DNA of 64,000 nt from a bacterium. GTDB taxonomy: Bacteria; Krumholzibacteriota; Krumholzibacteriia; LZORAL124-64-63. Below the pieces are notes generated by a model. That model was given only the letters and a program-made list of their open reading frames with translations, was not told the DNA's origin and made no database searches. The stretch is taken from assembly GCA_031441465.1 (NCBI GenBank), contig JANOEP010000066.1, forward strand, positions 64,001 through 128,000. The letters are read 5' to 3'. The position numbers and the translations under genes were made by a program. How positions within the stretch are numbered: position 1 is the stretch's first letter; each line of letters opens with the position of its first letter. Below, piece after piece: positions 17,704-27,308 of the stretch.

Positions 17704-17833
17704 GACTTCTCCCGTTCGAGGGTGAGGGGGAGGCGCGTCTCGACGGACGGTTTCCCCTGCAGGTGTCGGCGGGTGCGACATGGAGACTAGGGAGGCGGCA
17801 GGACGGTGTCAACGCAGGTGGTTGGCAGCACTC

Positions 17834-17852
17834 GCTAATGATAATCATTATT
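17834..17852. promoter_or_regulatory. Fur box
   Basis: GCTAATGATAATCATTATT matches 17/19 positions of canonical GATAATGATAATCATTATC. Confidence 0.85.
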
Positions 17853-17972
17853 CAATTATTCATTATTTACCTTGCCTCTCCGGAATCCCGGTGGCAACAT
17901 TCCGCAGGTTTGAGCCGCCGGACTGAACGGATCCACCGGTCGGCACCATGGTTTTGCCGGAAGGAGACCCCC

Positions 17973-19238
17973 TTGAAGACCTGGAAGTTGACCTCCCTGT
18001 TCGTGATCCTCGCGATGCTCATGAGTGTCGCCGCATATGCCGAATCTTGCACCGAGACTTGCGCCGAGACCTGCACCAGCGACATCAAGGTGACGGGCGA
18101 GTCCCGTTACCGGATCCAGATGGACGGAGCGGACCCCTACTTCTTCGACTTCGACGGGGACACCAACCCCACCTGGTTCAGCCAGCTGCGCACCCGCGTC
18201 GGCGTCAAGGCCATGGTCTCGGACAACATGGGCGTGTTCACCCAGTTCCAGGACAGCCGCTTCATCGGCGCCGTCAACGACTTCGGCATCGATCCCGTCC
18301 TGGAAATGCACCAGGGCTACATGTGGTACAAGCCCTGCGAGAAGAGCTGGCTCAAGATGGGCCGCTTCGAGATGAGCCTGCACAACGAGCGCCTCGTGGG
18401 CACCTCCGACTGGAGCATGTACGGCCAGGCGTTCGACGGCGTGATGATGGGCCGCCAGTTCGGTGAGAACATGAAAGCCACCTTCTGGGGCGTCAAGCTG
18501 TACGAGAGCTTCAACCAGTACACCGTGGTCGACGACACCGACGGCACGGATACCGCCGGCGACGACATGTTCTATGGCATCAACTTCTCGTTCCTGAACA
18601 AGGGCGTGGACGTGTTCGCCATGATGAACAGGTCCTTCGCCAACTTCCCCGGCTACGACGAGAACTACATCACTGTCGGCGCCTACAGCGAGCGGACCTT
18701 CGCCGAGAGCTTCGACTACAACGCCATGGTCGCGATGCAGACCGGCAAGGCCGACTTCGGCGCCACCGAGGTCGACGTCAGCGGCATGCTGCTGAACGCC
18801 GAGGTGGGATACACGATGGCCAACGGGATGCGCCTGGCCGGCCTCGTGGACTACACCACCGGCGACGATCCGACGACCACCGACAAGTGGGAAGGTTTCC
18901 ACAACCTGTTCTACAACTCCCACAAGTTCAACGGCATGATGGACATCGTCAACGCCGGCGACTTGGACGAGGGCCTCATGGACATCGGTCTGAAGCTCCT
19001 CTACCCGGTCAACGACAGCTGGTCGGCCATGGGCGAATTCCACAGCTTCGCGACGGTCGAGGAGTACGCGGCGGACAAGACCGCGCTGGGCTCCGAGATC
19101 GACCTGTCCGGCAAGTACGTCGACGGCGGCTTTGCCTGGCAGACCGGCCTCAGCATGTTCTCGCCCAGCGAGGACCGGGCCGGCCCGAACGCCGACAGCC
19201 AGAACTGGCTCTACACGCAGGCCACGATGAGCTTCTAG
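17973..19238 (+). CDS. Outer-membrane beta-barrel porin, alginate-export (AlgE-like) family
   Basis: AAGGAG RBS + TTG; signal peptide; QLRTR-x-G, FQDSR, GRFEM...ERLVG..W...QAFDG, DYTTGDD, GSEID; terminal Phe. Confidence 0.8.
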   Translation: MKTWKLTSLFVILAMLMSVAAYAESCTETCAETCTSDIKVTGESRYRIQMDGADPYFFDFDGDTNPTWFSQLRTRVGVKAMVSDNMGVFTQFQDSRFIGAVNDFGIDPVLEMHQGYMWYKPCEKSWLKMGRFEMSLHNERLVGTSDWSMYGQAFDGVMMGRQFGENMKATFWGVKLYESFNQYTVVDDTDGTDTAGDDMFYGINFSFLNKGVDVFAMMNRSFANFPGYDENYITVGAYSERTFAESFDYNAMVAMQTGKADFGATEVDVSGMLLNAEVGYTMANGMRLAGLVDYTTGDDPTTTDKWEGFHNLFYNSHKFNGMMDIVNAGDLDEGLMDIGLKLLYPVNDSWSAMGEFHSFATVEEYAADKTALGSEIDLSGKYVDGGFAWQTGLSMFSPSEDRAGPNADSQNWLYTQATMSF

Positions 19239-20169: not shown

Positions 20170-21078
20170 ATGATGCGTCTGCTCCTCCTCATCGCCGGAC
20201 TGCTCACCCTGCTCGCCGTCGTCGCGGCCGCAGGCGGCGGTTTCGCCGAGCGCGTGGGCATGCCGACCGGCGCGGCCTACGTCGGTTCCCAGGCCTGCCT
20301 GGACTGCCACGACGACGCCGGCACCTTCTACCAGCACACCCCCCATTCCGTGGACCTGGCCCTGTCTGCGCCCGTCTCCGGCGCCAGCGCCTGCGAGGCC
20401 TGCCACGGGCCGGGCAGTCTCCACGTGGAGGCCGGCGGCGAAGGTCCCATCTTCGGCAAGGCCGTCCTGTCCGCTCTGGACGCCGAGGACCGCGCCGAGA
20501 TGTGCCTGCAGTGCCACCAGGACAAGCGCGCCACCTGGTCGGGTTCGCCGCACGCCGGCAGCCCGACCGACTGCGCCGCGTGCCACACCGACGTGGTCCA
20601 CGGCGGTGGCGAGGCCCTGGCGCCGTCCGCCTTCCGGATCGCCGGCGAGTTCTGCCTGCAGTGCCACGCGGCCCAGGCTGCCGACTTCCGCCTGCCGTTC
20701 CGCCATCGGGTGCTCGAGGGCGAGGTCTCCTGCCAGGACTGCCACGCCGTCCACGGCGCGGCGCCCGCCGCCGACCCCCTGGGCGACCTGAACGCGGCCT
20801 GTCTGAACTGCCACACGGAAATGGCCGGCCCCTTCCTCTTCGAGCACGAGGCCGTGTCGGCCGAGGACTGCACGGCCTGCCATCGGCCACACGGTTCGAT
20901 CAACGACAAGCTGCTGACCCAGGACGGCAATTCGCTCTGCCTGCAGTGCCACTACGAGCCGGGATATCCGACCATCGGCGACGTGGACCACGGCGGTTTC
21001 CTGAGCAGCGAAGCGCGCTGCTACGACTGCCATCACGAGATCCACGGTTCGAACCTGAACTCCACCTTCCTGGACTAG
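20170..21078 (+). CDS. Decaheme c-type cytochrome, MtrA/DmsE/PioA family
   Basis: Signal peptide; exactly 10 CxxCH; CEACHGPGSLH, GPFLFEH, CHRPHGS, IHGSN signatures. Confidence 0.92.
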   Translation: MMRLLLLIAGLLTLLAVVAAAGGGFAERVGMPTGAAYVGSQACLDCHDDAGTFYQHTPHSVDLALSAPVSGASACEACHGPGSLHVEAGGEGPIFGKAVLSALDAEDRAEMCLQCHQDKRATWSGSPHAGSPTDCAACHTDVVHGGGEALAPSAFRIAGEFCLQCHAAQAADFRLPFRHRVLEGEVSCQDCHAVHGAAPAADPLGDLNAACLNCHTEMAGPFLFEHEAVSAEDCTACHRPHGSINDKLLTQDGNSLCLQCHYEPGYPTIGDVDHGGFLSSEARCYDCHHEIHGSNLNSTFLD

Positions 21079-21088
21079 AAAGGAGCGC

Positions 21089-22987
21089 GTGATGAAGAAC
21101 CTGCACTTGTCGATGCTGACCGCCGCCGCCGTGGCGCTCCTGGCCGCCGGTGCCGCCGTCGCGGGCGAACTGCCGGCCCAGGCCGACCGGATCTGGTCGG
21201 TTCCCGGGGATCATGTGGGTCTGTTCAGCCACGCCACGCTGACGCTCGACGCTCTGGACAGTTACGGGTATTCGGCGAAAGCGGCCGAGGACTGGCAGCT
21301 GACCGAAAAGTTCCGTTTCTCGTCGGTCTTCGCCTGGAACCGCAACTGGGACTCCGGCCGATGGCTGACCCTGCGCGGCGCCGGCGAGGATGGCGGCCGT
21401 CCCGGCGGCGCCGGCTCGCTGGGCCTGTGGGGCGGTTCGCCCGGAAAGTTCCGGACCTCGGTGACCTACCGCAGCTTCGACCATTATTACGATGGGACCA
21501 GCGAGATGCGCTCGGCGGTGTTCGCCGCGCCGCCGTCGCCGCCGGCCCTCACGCCCACCCCGGTCATGAATTGGAACCGCTTCGAGGCGGCCAGCTCCCA
21601 CCGCGTCTGGAACGGGTTCGGTCTCGAGGGGGGCGTCGCCTTCACGCGGCGCGACGGGATCAAGGGCAGCCTGCTGCGCAGCGGCGCCGGCAGCGCCGTG
21701 CCCGCCCAGAAGCACTTCGGCACGCTGGACCGGCGCGTCTGGGCCGGCGGCGACTACGCCTACGGCAAGCTGGCCACGGATTGGGAAGTGTCCTACCAGA
21801 AGAGCGAAGGCGACCGCGCGCTCGGCACGCGGCACCTCACCACCGACGACCGCACCCTGTGGAGCGGGCGGGTCGGCGGCGCCCTCGAGGTGTCGCCGGC
21901 GTTGCGCCTGGTGGGCCAGGCGATCGGCAGCTACCTCGAGAGCAACCCGCACGAGACCCAGGGGCTGGCCGACCGCGACATCACCTCCGACGCCGTGTCG
22001 GGCACGGGACGCGTCGGCGCGTTGTGGACGCCGGCCCGCGGCACGCGGCTGGACCTGTCCGCGGCCGTCCGCAACCAGAACGTCGACGGCCAGGTCGGTC
22101 CCGACAACGCCGTCGTCCACGCCGTCGATCGCGACCGCACCAGCCAGGACTACCACGCGGCGTTGTCGACGACCCGGCTGCCCTCGACCCGATTGCAGAT
22201 GAGCTACCGCTACCGCACCAGCGACCTCGAGGAGACGACCGCGCAGGACGGCGTGCCCGGCAGCGGCACCGAGGGCGACCTCCAGTCCACCGACCAGCAG
22301 CGCACGAGCCAGGAGGCCTCGTTGCGCGCGCGCACGCGTCTCGGGCACAACGTGACGCTGAAGGCCAAGGCGCAGTGGCGGCAGGAGGAGATCGATTCGG
22401 CCGATACCTGGGACACCGCCGGCGGCGACGCCTGGTTCTACTGGATGGGCGACCGCAAGCGGGACAAGCTGGTCTGGGAGGTCTGCCTGAACACACGGCC
22501 GGTCCCGGGCGTCAGCCTCGACCTCGGCCACCAGACGATCGCGCAGACCTTCGAGCGCGAAGATATTCCCGGTGTCGAGACCACCTGGGACGCCGTGCGC
22601 GGCTTCGCCGTGGCCACCTGGGCCGTCGCGCCGCGCCTGACGCTGCTGGGATCGTTCTCGATGGGGCAGGAGCAGTACGGGATCGACGGCGCCCCGGCCG
22701 TCGCGTCCGACGTCAGCCCTCTGGTCTACGACGCCACGACCGTGCGCTACGCGCCCGGCGCGGTGCTGGACCTCGGCCGCGGTTGGAGTTGCGAGGGCCA
22801 CTACGAGGCCGTCCGTACCACCGACTCGGTCGAGAACGACCTGGACCGCTGGTCGGCCCGCACCAGCTGGCGCTTCGCGGAGAAGCTGACCATGACCGCG
22901 AGTTACCGTCGCTGCGAGTTCGACGAGAACCGCTGGGACGATTACATCTTCGACCTGTACTCGCTGTCGGTGGGCGGCGTTTTCTAG
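21089..22987 (+). CDS. Outer-membrane beta-barrel partner of the decaheme (MtrB/PioB-like)
   Basis: Directly follows MtrA-type gene; signal peptide; beta-strand pattern; C-terminal Phe. Confidence 0.78.
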   Translation: MMKNLHLSMLTAAAVALLAAGAAVAGELPAQADRIWSVPGDHVGLFSHATLTLDALDSYGYSAKAAEDWQLTEKFRFSSVFAWNRNWDSGRWLTLRGAGEDGGRPGGAGSLGLWGGSPGKFRTSVTYRSFDHYYDGTSEMRSAVFAAPPSPPALTPTPVMNWNRFEAASSHRVWNGFGLEGGVAFTRRDGIKGSLLRSGAGSAVPAQKHFGTLDRRVWAGGDYAYGKLATDWEVSYQKSEGDRALGTRHLTTDDRTLWSGRVGGALEVSPALRLVGQAIGSYLESNPHETQGLADRDITSDAVSGTGRVGALWTPARGTRLDLSAAVRNQNVDGQVGPDNAVVHAVDRDRTSQDYHAALSTTRLPSTRLQMSYRYRTSDLEETTAQDGVPGSGTEGDLQSTDQQRTSQEASLRARTRLGHNVTLKAKAQWRQEEIDSADTWDTAGGDAWFYWMGDRKRDKLVWEVCLNTRPVPGVSLDLGHQTIAQTFEREDIPGVETTWDAVRGFAVATWAVAPRLTLLGSFSMGQEQYGIDGAPAVASDVSPLVYDATTVRYAPGAVLDLGRGWSCEGHYEAVRTTDSVENDLDRWSARTSWRFAEKLTMTASYRRCEFDENRWDDYIFDLYSLSVGGVF

Positions 22988-23015
22988 ACGCCAACCCTCG
23001 GAGACGGCTGTTCCG

Positions 23016-23047
23016 GGAACCCCGCAAAGGCGGGGTTCCTTTTTTTT
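23016..23047 (+). terminator. Rho-independent terminator
   Basis: GGAACCCCGC-AAAG-GCGGGGTTCC + 8 T. Confidence 0.92.
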
Positions 23048-23079
23048 GGCCGCCACCGCGGGGACCCCGCCCGAGCGGG

Positions 23080-23093
23080 TGAACGATCGTTCT
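23080..23093. promoter_or_regulatory. Palindromic operator copy 2
   Basis: TGAACG-AT-CGTTCT (core GAACGATCGTTC is a perfect palindrome). Confidence 0.55.
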
Positions 23094-23234
23094 CGTATCT
23101 GCAAGCTATCGCTAATGTTATAACACCTAGTAAGGACATATGAGTTATCTTATTGCATGGCAATCAGTTTCATGGGTTATTTTCATAACATTCTGGATTG
23201 ACGGGCCGAATTGGATGGGTAGGTTGGAGCAGAG

Positions 23235-23267: not shown

Positions 23268-23903
23268 ATGGCCTCCGAAACCCGACACGCCAACCGCCGG
23301 GGCGAGATCCTCGACCACGCGTCGCGGCTCTTCTCGGCTCACGGCTACGACGGCACCGCCATCCGGCTGATCGCCCGCGCCAGCGGCGTGACCGAGGCCG
23401 CCATCTACCGTCACTTCGACGGCAAGGCCCAGCTCTACGACGAGGTCATCCGCGCCAAGGCGCGCGAGCACGACATCGCGGGCGACCTCGCGACCAGTCG
23501 GGGCCGCGGCAGCGTCGAGGACGTCCTGCGCGTGGTGGCCAACCACGTCCTGTCCCTGGCGGCGCGCGATCCCGAAATCGTGCGGCTGATGTCCAACAGC
23601 AGCCTCGAGAACGTCCAGGGCCGCGCGACGCTCTTCCGCGAAGTGCGCAGCCCCTACATCGACTTCCTGATCGAGGAGATCTCGCGGCGCATGGCGACGG
23701 GGGAGGTCCGCCGGATCGACCCCGTCATCACCAGCCGTTGCTTCGTGGGCATGGTCATGGACTGTGCCCTCAACGCCGGCATGTGGAGCCGGTTCGCGGG
23801 CACGGAGGTCGACGCGCAGACCGTGGTCTGCAACAACGTGCCGATCTTCGCCCGCGGCCTCACCAACGGCGGCGCCGGGTCGCCGTCCAACGACGGAGAG
23901 TGA
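23268..23903 (+). CDS. TetR/AcrR-family transcriptional regulator (copy 1)
   Basis: ILDHASRLF..GYDGT.IR.IA...GVTEAAIYRHF..K HTH. Confidence 0.93.
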   Translation: MASETRHANRRGEILDHASRLFSAHGYDGTAIRLIARASGVTEAAIYRHFDGKAQLYDEVIRAKAREHDIAGDLATSRGRGSVEDVLRVVANHVLSLAARDPEIVRLMSNSSLENVQGRATLFREVRSPYIDFLIEEISRRMATGEVRRIDPVITSRCFVGMVMDCALNAGMWSRFAGTEVDAQTVVCNNVPIFARGLTNGGAGSPSNDGE

Positions 23904-23905
23904 CC

Positions 23906-25327
23906 ATGCACAAGCACGCAGCGGTCGCGGTCCTCGCGTTCCTGGTCCTCGGCAGCCTGTGGGGGTGCGAGAACGACACCTCCAACGGCACCGGGGATCC
24001 GAACGTCGTGCTGACCGACAAGACCTGCCTCGGCTGCCACAGCAGCCGGGACATGCTCATCGCCAACCTGGGCGAGGAGGCGACATCCAAGGCCGAGCCC
24101 ACCGACAAGGCCGACGGCTGAGGCGGCTCCGTACCCGCGCTGGAGGCGTGGGAAAAGGTCATCATCACCGGCACCAACGGGCAGCGGTTCCTCGACAGCG
24201 TGCACGGTCAGCGCTCCTGCCAGAGCTGCCACGGCGGCCCGGCCGACCGCACCTTCGAGACGATGGCGGAGGCGCACACCGGCATGGTCGCCGATCCCAG
24301 CGCGCACGGCGCCTGCGACGGCTGCCACGCCGAGGAGGCGGCGGCCACCGCGAACAGCCTGCACTCGAACCAGTGGGGCTACATCGCGATCATCGAGCAG
24401 CGCGGGCGCTGCACTTTCGAAGGCTCCGGCTTCGAAACCTACTTCGACCAGAAGTGCGGCAGCTGCCACACGACCTGCGGGCAGTGCCACGTCAGCCGGC
24501 CCAACAGCGTGGGCGGCGGCTTCCCGCTGATCGGCACCTACTACTCGCACCGCTTCCGGGCGTCGCCGGACATGACCGAGCAGTGCACGGCCTGCCACGG
24601 TTCGCGCGTGGGCAACGACTTCCTGGGGCAGAGCGAGGGCAACGTGCCCGACGTCCACCGCCAGCCCTACGGCTGGCAGTGCAAGGACTGCCACACCAAG
24701 GAGGAGATCCACGGCGACGATCAGTACGAGGGCGACCATTACGAGCACCGCTACGAGGTCAAGACGATGCCCCGTTGCGAGGACTGCCACGGCGAAGGCC
24801 AGGACGACGGCTGGGACAACGCCTACCACGCCATGCACGTGGGCAACGACGGCCTGAACCTGCAGTGCCAGGTCTGCCACTCGCAGCCCTACAAGAACTG
24901 CACGAACTGCCACAACCTGCTCACGGGCGGGGACAAGTCGGACAAGTTCGACATCGATCCCAGCCGCCTGCAGCTCAAGATCGGCCGCAACCTGAATCCC
25001 AACCGCGATGAGTACGACTACGTCGTCGTGCGTCACGCGCCGACCGATCCCGGCACCTTCGCCGAGTGGGGCCTGGATCTGCCCGGTTACCTGGACGCGC
25101 CGACCTGGCTCTACGCCTCCCCGCACAACATCGTGCGGCGCACGGCGCAGACGACGGTCGGGGAGGGGCAGACCTGCAGCACGGCCTGCCACGAGTCGCC
25201 CGACGGGCTCGACGGCTTCCTGCTGCGCGAGTCCGACCTGTACGCCGAAGACGGGGTGACCCGCCTGCCCGACTACGAAGCGAACCTGGGCGTGGTGATC
25301 CCGCCGACGTTCCCCGACTCGAAGTGA
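23906..25327 (+). CDS. Multiheme cytochrome c lipoprotein (10 CxxCH + 1 CxxxCH); probable selenoprotein (TGA 24119-24121 = Sec72)
   Basis: Lipobox LWGC and first heme (CLGCH) lie upstream of the TGA; frame continues GGSVPALEAWEKV into ORF 24200..25327, which has no export signal of its own; SECIS-like hairpin follows the TGA. Confidence 0.85.
24134..24152 (+). promoter_or_regulatory. Putative bacterial SECIS hairpin 2
   Basis: CCCGCGC-TGGAG-GCGTGGG: 7-bp stem starting 12 nt after the TGA, G-containing loop. Confidence 0.72.
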
Positions 25328-25336
25328 CGTGAAAGA

Positions 25337-25364
25337 CCGCCCGGCGGCGTGTGCCGCCGGGCGG
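25337..25364 (+). other. Intercistronic GC hairpin without U-tract (possible mRNA stabiliser or processing site)
   Basis: CCGCCCGGCGGC-GTGT-GCCGCCGGGCGG perfect 12-bp stem. Confidence 0.6.
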
Positions 25365-25427: not shown

Positions 25428-27308
25428 ATGATGAAACGCTGGACCCTGATGGCGTTGCTGCTGATCGCCATGGCGGCCATGTGGGGCTGCTCGAGCGACG
25501 ACGATCCCGTGGATCCGCCGGTCACGACCCCGTTCGAGACGATGGCCGCGGCGGTCGAGGCCTACCTCAACGACAACACGGACTGCCCGGGCGTGGTCTC
25601 GGCGCAGGCCCTGCATGACAACCTCGACGACTACACGGTTGTGGACATTCGCTCGGCGGCCGACTACTTGGCCGGCCACATCCCCGGCGCCTACAACTCG
25701 TCGCTCGCCACTATCCTGACGGACGTGGGCACGACGATCCCCACCGACAAGACCATCGTCGTCGCCTGCTACAGCGGCCAGACCGCCGGGCACGCGAAGA
25801 TCGCCCTGGAGCTCTCGGGCGTCGAGGACGTCAAGACCTTGGGCTTCGGCATGGCGTCCTGGAGCAGCACCCTGGCCGGGGTAATGAACACCAACATCGG
25901 CGACAACCTGCTGGCTCCCGAGACGACGAACAACAACGGTGGACTGACCGTGCATGAGTTCCCGACGCTGACCGGCACCAACGCGACGGTCGTCGCCGAG
26001 CGCGTGGCCGCCATGATCGCGGGCGGCTTCAAGTCGATCAACTACTCGGAGATCCGCGACAACCTGGACGACTACTACATTGTGAACTATTTCGGCGAGG
26101 CGGACTACCTCGGCACCGGCACTGCCGGCGTCCCCGGCCACATCCCCGGCGCTTACCAGTTCACGCCCTACGCCAGCCTCGGCCTCGAGCAGATGCTCGA
26201 CAAGCTGCCCAGCGACGGCACCACGATCGTCGTCTACTGCTGGTCCGGCCAGCACAGTAGCCAAGTCACCGCGGCCCTGAACATGTTGGGCTACAACGCC
26301 AAGTCGCTGAAGTTCGGCGCCAACCACCTGTTCCACAGCGCGCTGACGACCAACAACTGGTCCGCGGCCTCGACCCACGACTTCGAACTCGAAGTCGGCG
26401 GCGCGCAGACGCCCGAGTTCGCGGCCATGTACGCGGCCGTCGACGCCTACCTGAACGACAACACCGACAGCCCGGGCGTGATCACCGCCCAGGCGCTCTA
26501 CGACAACTTCGACGACTACACGGTCATCGACATCCGCTCGGCGACCGACTACGCGGCCGGACACATCACGGGTGCCTACAATTCGAGCCTGGCCACGCTG
26601 CTGAACGACCTGGTCGGGACGATCCCCGCCGACAAGCCCTACGTGGTCACCTGCTACACCGGCCAGAGCGCCGGCCACGCCAAGGTCGCGATGGAGCTGA
26701 TGGGCTACGAGGAAGTCAAGTCGCTGAAGTGGGGCATGTGCTCCTGGAACTCGACGCTCGCCGGCCGTTTGAACGACAACGTCGGCGACTACCTGCCCAT
26801 GGCCGAGACGACGAACAACAACGGATCGCTGACCGCCCGCGCCTACCCGACGCTGGCGGACGAGGATCCCGCGACCGTGGTCGAGGACCGCGTCGCCGCC
26901 ATGCTGGCGGCCGGGTTCCAGAGCGTCACCTGGACGGCGCCGACGCCGCCGGATCTGACTCCCTACTTCATCGTGAACTACTTCGGCGTGGCGGACTACG
27001 AGGGCACCGGCACCAACGGCGTTCCCGGCCACATCCCCGGCGCCTTCCAGTTCACGCCCTACACGAGCCTGAAGATCGGCGAGATGCTGCCTTACCTGCC
27101 CAGCGACGGCACGCCCATCCTGGTGTACTGCTGGACCGGTCAGACCAGCAGCCAGGTCGTGGCGGCCCTGAACATGCTGGGCTACAACGCCAAGTCGCTG
27201 AGCTACGGCTCCAACCGGCTGTTCCATACTTCGCTGCTGGCGAACAAGTGGACGGCGGCCGAGACGCACGATTTCCCGCTCTCGACGGCGGTCCCGGCCC
27301 TGTTCTGA
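25428..27308 (+). CDS. Lipoprotein with four rhodanese (sulfurtransferase) domains
   Basis: AAGGAG RBS; lipobox MWGC; repeated GHIPGA; active-site loops CYSGQT, CWSGQH, CYTGQS, CWTGQT; internal duplication. Confidence 0.9.
   Translation: MMKRWTLMALLLIAMAAMWGCSSDDDPVDPPVTTPFETMAAAVEAYLNDNTDCPGVVSAQALHDNLDDYTVVDIRSAADYLAGHIPGAYNSSLATILTDVGTTIPTDKTIVVACYSGQTAGHAKIALELSGVEDVKTLGFGMASWSSTLAGVMNTNIGDNLLAPETTNNNGGLTVHEFPTLTGTNATVVAERVAAMIAGGFKSINYSEIRDNLDDYYIVNYFGEADYLGTGTAGVPGHIPGAYQFTPYASLGLEQMLDKLPSDGTTIVVYCWSGQHSSQVTAALNMLGYNAKSLKFGANHLFHSALTTNNWSAASTHDFELEVGGAQTPEFAAMYAAVDAYLNDNTDSPGVITAQALYDNFDDYTVIDIRSATDYAAGHITGAYNSSLATLLNDLVGTIPADKPYVVTCYTGQSAGHAKVAMELMGYEEVKSLKWGMCSWNSTLAGRLNDNVGDYLPMAETTNNNGSLTARAYPTLADEDPATVVEDRVAAMLAAGFQSVTWTAPTPPDLTPYFIVNYFGVADYEGTGTNGVPGHIPGAFQFTPYTSLKIGEMLPYLPSDGTPILVYCWTGQTSSQVVAALNMLGYNAKSLSYGSNRLFHTSLLANKWTAAETHDFPLSTAVPALF

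Follow-up and report, generated by a model that had tools for sequence, protein, structure and literature searches.

The stretch of DNA analyzed here (the window; 64,000 nt) comprises positions 64,001 to 128,000 of contig JANOEP010000066.1 in assembly GCA_031441465.1, read on the forward strand, and comes from a bacterium of the lineage Krumholzibacteriota, LZORAL124-64-63. Within it, one plus-strand reading frame encodes a putative multiheme cytochrome c and is interrupted by a single in-frame TGA, the frame being otherwise open to its TGA stop (Table 1). A preliminary description, made from the letters of the window, had proposed that this gene is a hidden selenoprotein, namely one exported 473-aa multiheme lipoprotein with selenocysteine (Sec) at residue 72 in a DG-U-GG linker. 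This proposal was borne out by the TGA or Cys codons of homologs at the aligned position, by conserved flanks and by the Sec machinery of the genome, and we consider it very probable that the UGA encodes selenocysteine, giving one polypeptide. Homologs align over residues 1-473 of the window protein.

Translation of the frame revealed the features that had been claimed for it. The lipobox L-W-G-C and the first CxxCH motif precede the TGA, whereas nine further CxxCH motifs, starting at C105, C137, C184, C191, C227, C259, C291, C321 and C332, and one CSTACH motif of the CxxxCH type at C424-H429 follow it. The lipobox was assigned by eye, and its Cys21 is retained in all 85 full-length Sec-type relatives, the set to which the residue conservation given below refers. 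A variable linker of about 25 residues separates heme motif 1 from ADG-TGA, and the peptide spanning the recoded codon would read ADG-U-GGSVPALEAWEK. On the upstream side, the stop codon TGA of a TetR-family gene (23901-23903) lies between the Shine-Dalgarno-like GGAGAG and the ATG, 2 nt before the cytochrome start. The part past the internal TGA had been said to lack an export signal of its own, and indeed the earliest start codon there, GTG 24200, gives a 375-aa multiheme product without a leader or export signal.

Table 1. Coordinates of the cytochrome gene, its elements and its neighbors in the window
Feature	Position	Strand	Remarks
Whole gene, putative Sec-containing 11-heme lipoprotein cytochrome c	23906..25327	+	473 codons and TGA stop 25325-25327
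Shine-Dalgarno-like GGAGAG	23895..23900	+	5 nt before ATG 23906; read from the sequence
Predicted signal peptide MHKHAAVAVLAFLVLGSLWGC, lipobox L-W-G-C	23906..23968	+	lipidation site Cys21 at 23966-23968; from translation
Heme motif 1, C41-L-G-C-H45 (CLGCH)	24026..24040	+	5' of the Sec codon; invariant in 85/85 relatives
UGA predicted to be read as selenocysteine, codon 72	24119..24121	+	context ADG-TGA-GGSVPALEAWEKV
SECIS-like (selenocysteine insertion sequence-like) hairpin CCCGCGCU-GGA-GGCGUGGG	24134..24152	+	starts 12 nt past the UGA; overlaps codons P-A-L-E-A-W-E
Body with heme motifs 2-11, C105 to H429	24218..25192	+	from translation and conservation
Lipoprotein with four rhodanese domains	25428..27308	+	Pfam PF00581 E 1e-48, 4 stretches; each with active-site Cys loop C-[YW]-[ST]-G-Q
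TetR-family regulator	23268..23903	+	Pfam TetR_N E 8.7e-17; upstream, same strand, in 39/74 loci
Possible MtrB/PioB-like outer-membrane porin, 632-codon open reading frame	21089..22987	+	PF11854 E 0.0014 (below cut-off), NF041027 E 0.0049; upstream in 31/74 loci
DmsE/MtrA-like periplasmic decaheme cytochrome	20170..21078	+	TIGR03508 206.4 bits (cut-off 192.2); upstream in 27/74 loci

To place the internal TGA among homologs, a protein search was carried out against 5.8 billion proteins (E <= 0.001), in which 7999 candidates were scored and 120 relatives listed. The results revealed at least 2235 relatives at this threshold among the candidates scored. Query coverage was just 61-84% in 114 of the 120 listed proteins, and all nine aligned proteins with a coverage of 81-84% begin with [M/V]-P-x-L-x-A-W, directly past the TGA. 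The database proteins are shortened because gene callers stop at the common in-frame TGA. Whole genomes were also read in six frames. Among the 208 genomes of the phylum that were scanned, 70 harbor the gene; the match extends across residue 72 in 69 of them, and 67 of these 69 have one TGA inside it. At least 553 stretches confirmed by tblastn were found among species-representative genomes.

The TGA codon was then placed by script in three overlapping sets of loci (30, 20 further and 80, the last drawn from the scan of species-representative genomes), which combined hold 90 distinct proteins and 87 distinct 75-nt TGA segments. The codon lies within the motif [D/E/G]G-TGA-[G/A]G-x-[V/I]-P-x-L-E-x-W-E-K-V in all 30 loci of the first set, in 18 of the 20 further loci (the two exceptions were chosen because they had been flagged beforehand as having no stop), and in 76 of the 80 species-representative loci. 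The records of these 80 loci carry the labels Krumholzibacteriota, Eisenbacteria, KSB1, Calditrichota, Phycisphaerae, Ignavibacteria, Gemmatimonadota and others, and the identity to the window protein falls to about 40% across the loci. Residues G71, U72, G74 and W82 are invariant in the full-length Sec-type members, and position 73 is G in 83 of the 85. Moreover, Cys is aligned with U72 in two database proteins (P0123 and P0124, GEGG-C-GG-TLPEMEAW), and TGC occupies the Sec position in six metagenome loci (L144-L149, with two near-identical pairs among them), of which L147 has the gene as one uninterrupted open reading frame (ORF) of 446 codons. The preliminary description had held that separate, out-of-frame halves in relatives would speak against a single protein. 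No such halves were seen; every relative examined has its two halves in frame, and the Cys-type relatives have a single ORF.

The hairpin that had been noticed 12 nt past the TGA forms 8 pairs when G-U pairs are counted, and its support comes from comparison of the 87 distinct segments, none of it from the window alone. Across these sequences, 86.2% of the cells are paired, versus 27.7-52.2% when the 3' partner was slid by 1-3 columns, and neither the paired share nor the covariation score was reached by any of 500 shuffles. At the middle pair, 36 sequences have C-G and 28 have A-U, and one-sided changes were not found among the 87. This correlation is not explained by coding, because on the 5' side the base belongs to a variable Ala/Glu codon, as its second position, while on the 3' side it is a silent third position, in an Ala codon. 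In distant clades the register of the hairpin is shifted (UACCUCC-GUU-GGAGGUA), with no change in its distance from the TGA. The mean folding energy was -15.0 kcal/mol for the real sequences versus -12.0 kcal/mol for synonymous resamples; 77 of the 87 hairpin stretches were more stable than the mean of their own resamples, and 19 of the 87 fell in the lowest 5% of resamples, whereas a control stretch taken from these genes gave 7 of the 87.

A search of the genome for the Sec machinery, on which the preliminary description had also made its proposal depend, revealed tRNA-Sec (67.8 bits, anticodon TCA), SelA, the winged-helix domain of SelB, and SelD (G000 contig C25:35277-36200, locus L141; 342.7 bits). 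The SelD gene contains one in-frame TGA of its own and is probably a second selenoprotein gene, liable to truncation in annotation. Elsewhere in this DNA TGA acts as an ordinary stop, terminating both the cytochrome gene and the neighboring TetR gene. Since TGA has this role and the Sec machinery is present, an alternative genetic code in which TGA means Trp or Gly was ruled out.

Sequencing reads added little to the confirmation of the TGA. A contig from a sequencing run covers the whole stretch with 0 differences, and this run is possibly the source of the DNA, hence no independent evidence; six further genomes of the same genus have the TGA at the identical place. Judged from these sequences, the TGA is no sequencing slip. 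Independent contigs of a DNA run (X3) and of two RNA-library runs (X15 and X16, metatranscriptome-type libraries from biofilm and aquifer) match portions of the gene with an identity of about 90-95%. The X3 contig is the only independent one with sequence on both sides of the TGA position, and the X15 contig stops 6 nt past it. The contigs in X15 and X16 indicate that relatives occur in RNA libraries; transcription is not thereby demonstrated.

Several results weigh against recoding. The window hairpin alone is no better than chance (z -0.94; 31 of 200 shuffles fold equally well), its z value against synonymous-codon resamples is -0.77, and an Rfam search of 24050-24250 gave chance-level matches only, with no family fitting the hairpin. 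In this G+C-rich DNA the hairpin taken by itself is unremarkable; the support for this element is the comparison with relatives. The preliminary description had stated that Trp, Arg or Gly in homologs would argue against Sec. A small minority does show such replacements: in four of the 80 loci, site 72 codes for W, Q, R or G (TGG, CAA, CGG and GGC, respectively). In the listed database proteins site 72 is W, Q, P or a gap in 6 of 120. These codons indicate that Sec is dispensable in some lineages. Both variant genomes that were tested, G161 and G110 (W and Q types), retain SelA and tRNA-Sec, which rules out loss of the Sec machinery as the cause of the W and Q variants.

Taken together, the UGA is assigned to Sec because the TGA is conserved, Cys-type relatives exist, the hairpin covaries, the Sec machinery is present, and TGA is otherwise a normal stop. 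The opposite reading, in which the TGA is a genuine stop owing to a pseudogene, two genes, a sequencing error or a read-through site without Sec, agrees with the splitting of the gene by gene callers, with the insignificance of the hairpin in the window alone and with the minority relatives that have W, R or G, residues which read-through can insert too; nevertheless, it is largely refuted and very improbable given that the TGA keeps precisely the same position in relatives from many phyla and of as little as 42% identity, that purifying selection is strong on both sides of it, that the part past it has no start codon plus leader, and that Cys-type single ORFs, a complete Sec machinery and hairpin covariation were all found.

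The gene directly downstream encodes a lipoprotein with rhodanese domains, and this partnership was tallied over the 76 Sec-type loci from the species-representative scan, of which 2 were not assessable (no flank) and 74 were. The results showed that a rhodanese gene is linked to the cytochrome in 72 of the 74 loci: directly downstream on the same strand in 69, upstream in two, and fused in one ORF, with two domains N-terminal to the Sec cytochrome, in one; no rhodanese was found in the remaining two. The fusion (L136:2912-5209, in a metagenome-assembled genome (MAG) labeled Dehalococcoidaceae) consists of a lipoprotein leader, two rhodanese domains and the Sec cytochrome, with Sec at residue 401. 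The rhodanese is retained in 6 of 6 Cys-type loci. Among the loci that have lost the chalcogen, it is absent in two of three assessable ones (Q and R types), and the G type has a single weak domain. Gene order, together with one natural fusion, thus gives this link strong support. Outside the genus of the window, the partner is again a lipoprotein but has two domains and about 320-360 residues, with both active-site loops intact in most, and the four-domain protein of the window genus is apparently an internal duplication of this two-domain unit. A complex prediction for the Cys-type pair of L147 (cytochrome 21-446 and rhodanese 28-338, with alignments) gave a score of 0.02, which is evidence neither way.

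The gap between the two genes contains a further hairpin, observed at 25337-25364, 10 nt past the cytochrome stop, with 12 perfect G+C base pairs and a 4-nt loop (CCGCCCGGCGGC / GCCGCCGGGCGG). This gap is 100 nt long in the window, and one of about 100-120 nt recurs in relatives. The hairpin is no classic terminator because it lacks a T-run, and it may serve as an mRNA stabilizer or processing site.

The genes upstream of the cytochrome are less constant partners. The TetR, decaheme and porin-like genes accompany the cytochrome-rhodanese pair mainly within Krumholzibacteriota. The decaheme cytochrome is a possible electron supply for the Sec cytochrome, and the ORF 21089-22987 may, judged from its weak profile matches, be the divergent porin of a porin-cytochrome conduit. 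One of the models it matches, NF041027, is that of the GSU2204-family "CXXCH-containing (seleno)protein". Two ORFs overlapping the porin-like gene (21361-23082 on the plus strand and 20900-23104 on the minus strand) are probably spurious in this G+C-rich DNA. Farther upstream of the cytochrome cluster lies an Alginate_exp (outer-membrane barrel) ORF, 17763-19238 (+), with E 5.7e-13. With its succession of decaheme, porin-like ORF and lipoprotein multiheme cytochrome, this genome resembles known porin-cytochrome conduits, such as MtrCAB of Shewanella and the GSU2203/2204 type of Geobacter. In contrast to MtrCAB-type conduits, no MtrC-type chain was among the fold matches of the window protein, and the conduit-type partners, decaheme and porin, are upstream in the minority of loci given in Table 1 only, while almost all loci have the rhodanese.

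All 11 heme motifs are retained in the full-length Sec-type members, where C424 is present in 96% and the remaining motif residues are invariant. Exactly 10 His residues outside the motifs are invariant (H100, H124, H153, H215, H251, H269, H308, H311, H377 and H407), and no Met is conserved. It follows from these counts that one heme lacks a canonical sixth ligand. Candidates for its sixth position, as far as conservation can indicate, are Sec72, K330 (98% conserved), the invariant Y329, or an open site. Each invariant Cys is the lipobox Cys, a heme-motif Cys or at the Sec position.

To assess the family membership of the window protein, it was compared with profile collections. Pfam gave generic multiheme matches only, including a weak one to PF22113 (MtrC/MtrF domain II/IV; 23.6 bits, below the cut-off of 30). 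In NCBIfam, the only match at E <= 1 was a 9.8-bit decaheme match, with none to NF040886, NF041027 or TIGR04315, and no model of NCBIfam 20.0 reached its cut-off on the window family. A sequence search of the PDB with the window protein returned 0 matches at E <= 1, and a search with the family profile gave short heme-motif matches only, the best being to 6qvm (E 0.0022).

The predicted fold offered a better lead. An AlphaFold2 model was obtained with a mean pLDDT (predicted local distance difference test) of 82.3 and a pTM (predicted template modeling score) of 0.79. Foldseek against the PDB found nothing at E <= 0.001. An exhaustive VIA-align comparison matched residues 97-473 of the model to residues 1-435 of chain 1sp3_A with Z 8.9, root-mean-square deviation 4.1 and 275 residues aligned; the next-best chain had Z 3.7, and MtrA had Z 3.6. 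1SP3 is OTR, the octaheme tetrathionate reductase of Shewanella (PMC9250108), in which heme II is ligated by Lys56 (PMC3769277). OTR (Shewanella oneidensis SO4144, TIGR04315) is the only clear structural match to the modeled core of the window protein. Both are multiheme enzymes, or candidates for such, acting on S-S compounds, and in each one heme appears to lack a His sixth ligand. They differ in that OTR has 8 hemes, while the window protein has 11 and an extra N-terminal arm carrying heme 1 and Sec. OTR relatives conserve a G-K...N-N-F-C loop before heme II; the aligned loop in the window family appears to have no invariant Lys or Cys, and this alignment is itself no better than the controls described below.

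At the level of sequence, the window protein had no match to TIGR04315 (cut-off 375 bits) at E <= 1, and weak matches were obtained for 9 of 64 family members (best E 5.1e-5). Separate OTR-family genes without an internal TGA are above the cut-off in 62 of the 208 genomes of the phylum. An OTR-like octaheme paralogue was also observed in G000 (contig C36:32474-33751), with 327 bits to TIGR04315, below the cut-off, and no internal stop. A profile-profile comparison by hhalign of the family with OTR gave 97.5% over 175 columns, in which seven heme motifs follow in order and hemes 3-9 fall on OTR hemes 1-7.

The resemblance to OTR has to be set against several findings that tell the other way. 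Z 8.9 is a middling value, VIA-align warns that Z < 8 can mean a common arrangement only, and the model is weakest near Sec, with pLDDT < 50 at residues 66-69 and a mean of 69 for the block 71-80. In control comparisons, hhalign gave 98.4% over 137 columns for the family against an unrelated decaheme, 97.3% over 231 columns for OTR against the decaheme, and 98.3% over 176 columns for OTR against MccSep (introduced below). As these pairs of multiheme families score equally high or higher, hhalign was rejected as evidence of kinship with OTR, and the heme mapping is a lead only. It was observed more generally that hhalign gives a probability of 95-98% for any pair of multiheme families tried, including families called unrelated in print; profile-profile scores alone are unfit to claim kinship among multiheme cytochromes.

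The closest functional parallel known to us from the literature is MccSep/ExtKL (GSU2937-2936, Geobacter sulfurreducens; NF040886), a five-heme periplasmic Sec enzyme that reduces polysulfide (Mihara et al., Sci Adv 2026, PMC13510729). It prefers polysulfide and reduces selenite too; its Sec325 sits in a mobile D-G-U-P loop of a C-terminal Ig-like domain, beside a His/Cys-ligated heme, and the authors note that the reaction resembles the reverse of TsdA/SoxAX chemistry (PMC13510729). Like MccSep, the window family consists of exported multiheme cytochromes c with a single Sec and a UGA annotated as stop. A SECIS-like hairpin follows within about 30 nt in either case, and both place the Sec in a flexible turn, after D-G in D-G-U-P in MccSep and in [D/E]-G-U-G-G in the window family. 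Cys-type relatives are known for the one as for the other. The Geobacter ext cluster with the MccSep gene also contains a rhodanese, ExtH.

The two families are nevertheless distinct. The window protein gave no match to NF040886 at E <= 1, and hhalign against 113 MccSep sequences (parsed from Data S1 of PMC13510729, all with 5 CxxCH) aligned 21 columns only, around one heme motif, whereas other multiheme families aligned over at least 130 columns. The window protein has 11 hemes and MccSep 5; the Sec of the window protein falls between hemes 1 and 2, as residue 72 out of 473, instead of toward the C terminus, as U325; the heme-ligating free C239 of MccSep has no invariant counterpart in the window family; and the window protein is a predicted lipoprotein, while MccSep is soluble and periplasmic. 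The taxa differ as well, since the window family is found in Krumholzibacteriota and in MAGs labeled Eisenbacteria, KSB1, Phycisphaerae, Ignavibacteria and others, and MccSep mainly in Desulfobacterota and Nitrospirota. On these sequence comparisons the window gene lies outside the MccSep/ExtKL family. By analogy, the protein probably works like MccSep in outline, with the Sec in a flexible D/E-G-U turn beside an odd heme.

Rhodanese-type sulfur carriers feed reductases, as Sud does for Psr of Wolinella and ExtH for ExtKL. Here too, an exported rhodanese with intact Cys loops adjoins a candidate terminal reductase. The present case differs in several ways: the carrier, a lipoprotein, has two domains in most phyla but four in the window genus; one lineage has it fused to the cytochrome; and its candidate partner is a heme-Sec protein and no molybdoenzyme.

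These comparisons inspired us to propose the following mechanism. SelA, SelB, SelD and tRNA-Sec would decode the UGA as selenocysteine, aided by the hairpin behind it, and the product would leave the cytoplasm via the Sec export pathway, be lipidated on Cys21 and receive 11 c-type hemes. Sec72, in its G-U-G-G turn, would join a flexible N-terminal tether carrying heme 1 to an OTR-shaped core and act as the catalytic nucleophile on S-S or Se-O bonds, as in sulfane sulfur, polysulfide, polythionate or selenite, with substrates probably offered as persulfides on the active-site Cys of the adjoining rhodanese lipoprotein. The Se-S adduct would be cleaved by electrons of the heme chain at the one heme without a conserved His sixth ligand; in the genome of the window these electrons may arrive through the neighboring DmsE/MtrA-like decaheme and porin-like genes. 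The attack of Sec72 on a sulfur or selenium substrate and the heme-chain reduction of the Se-S adduct are both inferred by analogy. We regard it as fairly probable that the protein is a redox enzyme for sulfur or selenium compounds working together with the rhodanese, and the account as a whole, with Sec72 as nucleophile, feeding by the rhodanese and reduction by the heme chain, as having somewhat better than even prospects. The reductive direction, taken separately, falls slightly short of an even chance. Certain points count against this account: the family has no invariant free Cys to partner the Sec, unlike MccSep; the proposed substrate and direction derive from neighbors and analogy only; and the decaheme gene is found with the pair in just 27 of the 74 loci and the porin gene in just 31.

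The preliminary description had suggested two roles for the Sec, either as an axial ligand of a heme or as a mobile arm that accepts sulfur from the rhodanese; gene order and the fusion speak for the rhodanese link, and the tally of heme ligands agrees with the first idea. Other readings of the same gene were considered. One holds that Sec72 chiefly serves one of the hemes as its sixth (distal) ligand, forming a natural His/selenolate heme c that tunes the potential or forms the active site, in a role like that of Cys in TsdA, SoxAX and MccSep and with no free nucleophilic arm; it overlaps partly with the mechanism above. With 11 invariant heme motifs, 10 other invariant His and no conserved Met, the ligand tally favors it, and so do the Gly flanks of Sec72, which would permit close approach, the natural relatives with Cys in place of Sec, and the catalytic role of His/Cys ligation in related sulfur enzymes (PMC13510729). 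On the other side, K330 or Y329 may serve as the odd ligand, or that heme may be five-coordinate, the W, Q, R and G variants retain all heme motifs seen in their alignments, and the model has low confidence in the Sec loop, so that we judge ligation as the main role unlikely. A combined form, in which Sec72 is the sixth ligand of one heme and the selenium cycles on and off the iron while accepting sulfane sulfur from the rhodanese, seems doubtful and marginally less probable still. Tentatively, the heme so ligated would be heme 4 (C184-H188), the counterpart of the Lys-ligated catalytic heme II of OTR. If true, a selenolate-ligated heme c would here be seen in nature for the first time, and the catalytic Lys/Cys loop of OTR would have been replaced in evolution by a selenocysteine on a new N-terminal arm.

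The nucleophile mechanism set out above runs in the reductive direction, and the same gene anatomy is compatible with an oxidative enzyme that, like TsdA and SoxAX, takes electrons from thiosulfate, sulfide or a rhodanese persulfide and passes them via its 11 hemes to the respiratory chain or an outside acceptor. Porin-cytochrome conduits can carry electrons in either direction, which counts for this possibility, as does the likening of the MccSep reaction to reverse TsdA/SoxAX chemistry by its authors (PMC13510729). The two nearest characterized analogues, MccSep and OTR, are both described as reductases, and the window holds no indicator of direction; we therefore consider oxidation improbable. 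Still less probable is selenite or tellurite as the physiological substrate, for detoxification or respiration, instead of sulfur compounds. This idea gains from the reduction of selenite by MccSep (PMC13510729), from the link between the Geobacter ext cluster and selenite and tellurite reduction reported in PMC5877670, and from weak matches of 30 of 64 family members to ExtM of a "selenite/tellurite reduction operon". These matches are weak, as is typical of short multiheme similarity, MccSep favors polysulfide (PMC13510729), and the tight coupling to the rhodanese indicates sulfane sulfur.

Full-text searches of the literature, whose scope did not extend to subscription-only papers, found no description of this family. 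The only heme-related entries in the selenoprotein table of a 2026 review, as far as the accessible part goes, are ExtKL, the GSU2204 / MtrB-PioB protein and an OTR-family octaheme (PMC13188914). The models for these three, NF040886, NF041027 and TIGR04315, are those that the window protein did not match at E <= 1. The corresponding part of a 2022 table has ExtKL or "cytochrome c family protein" and GSU2204 / MtrB-PioB, the OTR-family octaheme being in the 2026 table only (PMC9312934). The window family was not found in the accessible parts of these two tables.

Selenium-containing multiheme cytochromes were established experimentally as an enzyme class only in 2026, with the MccSep polysulfide reductase (PMC13510729). 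The window gene would represent a second family of such cytochromes with no detectable sequence relationship to MccSep, distinguished by its 11 hemes, by a Sec near the N terminus, by lipid anchoring, by the OTR-like core of the predicted model and by a near-constant rhodanese partner. Because gene callers cut the gene at the UGA almost everywhere, the family is absent from metabolic reconstructions of many uncultured lineages of sediment, groundwater and soil, and a corrected annotation would give those genomes a probable sulfur- or selenium-respiring module. The family would also provide a second, independent case for the question of why heme-based S-S chemistry recruits selenium.

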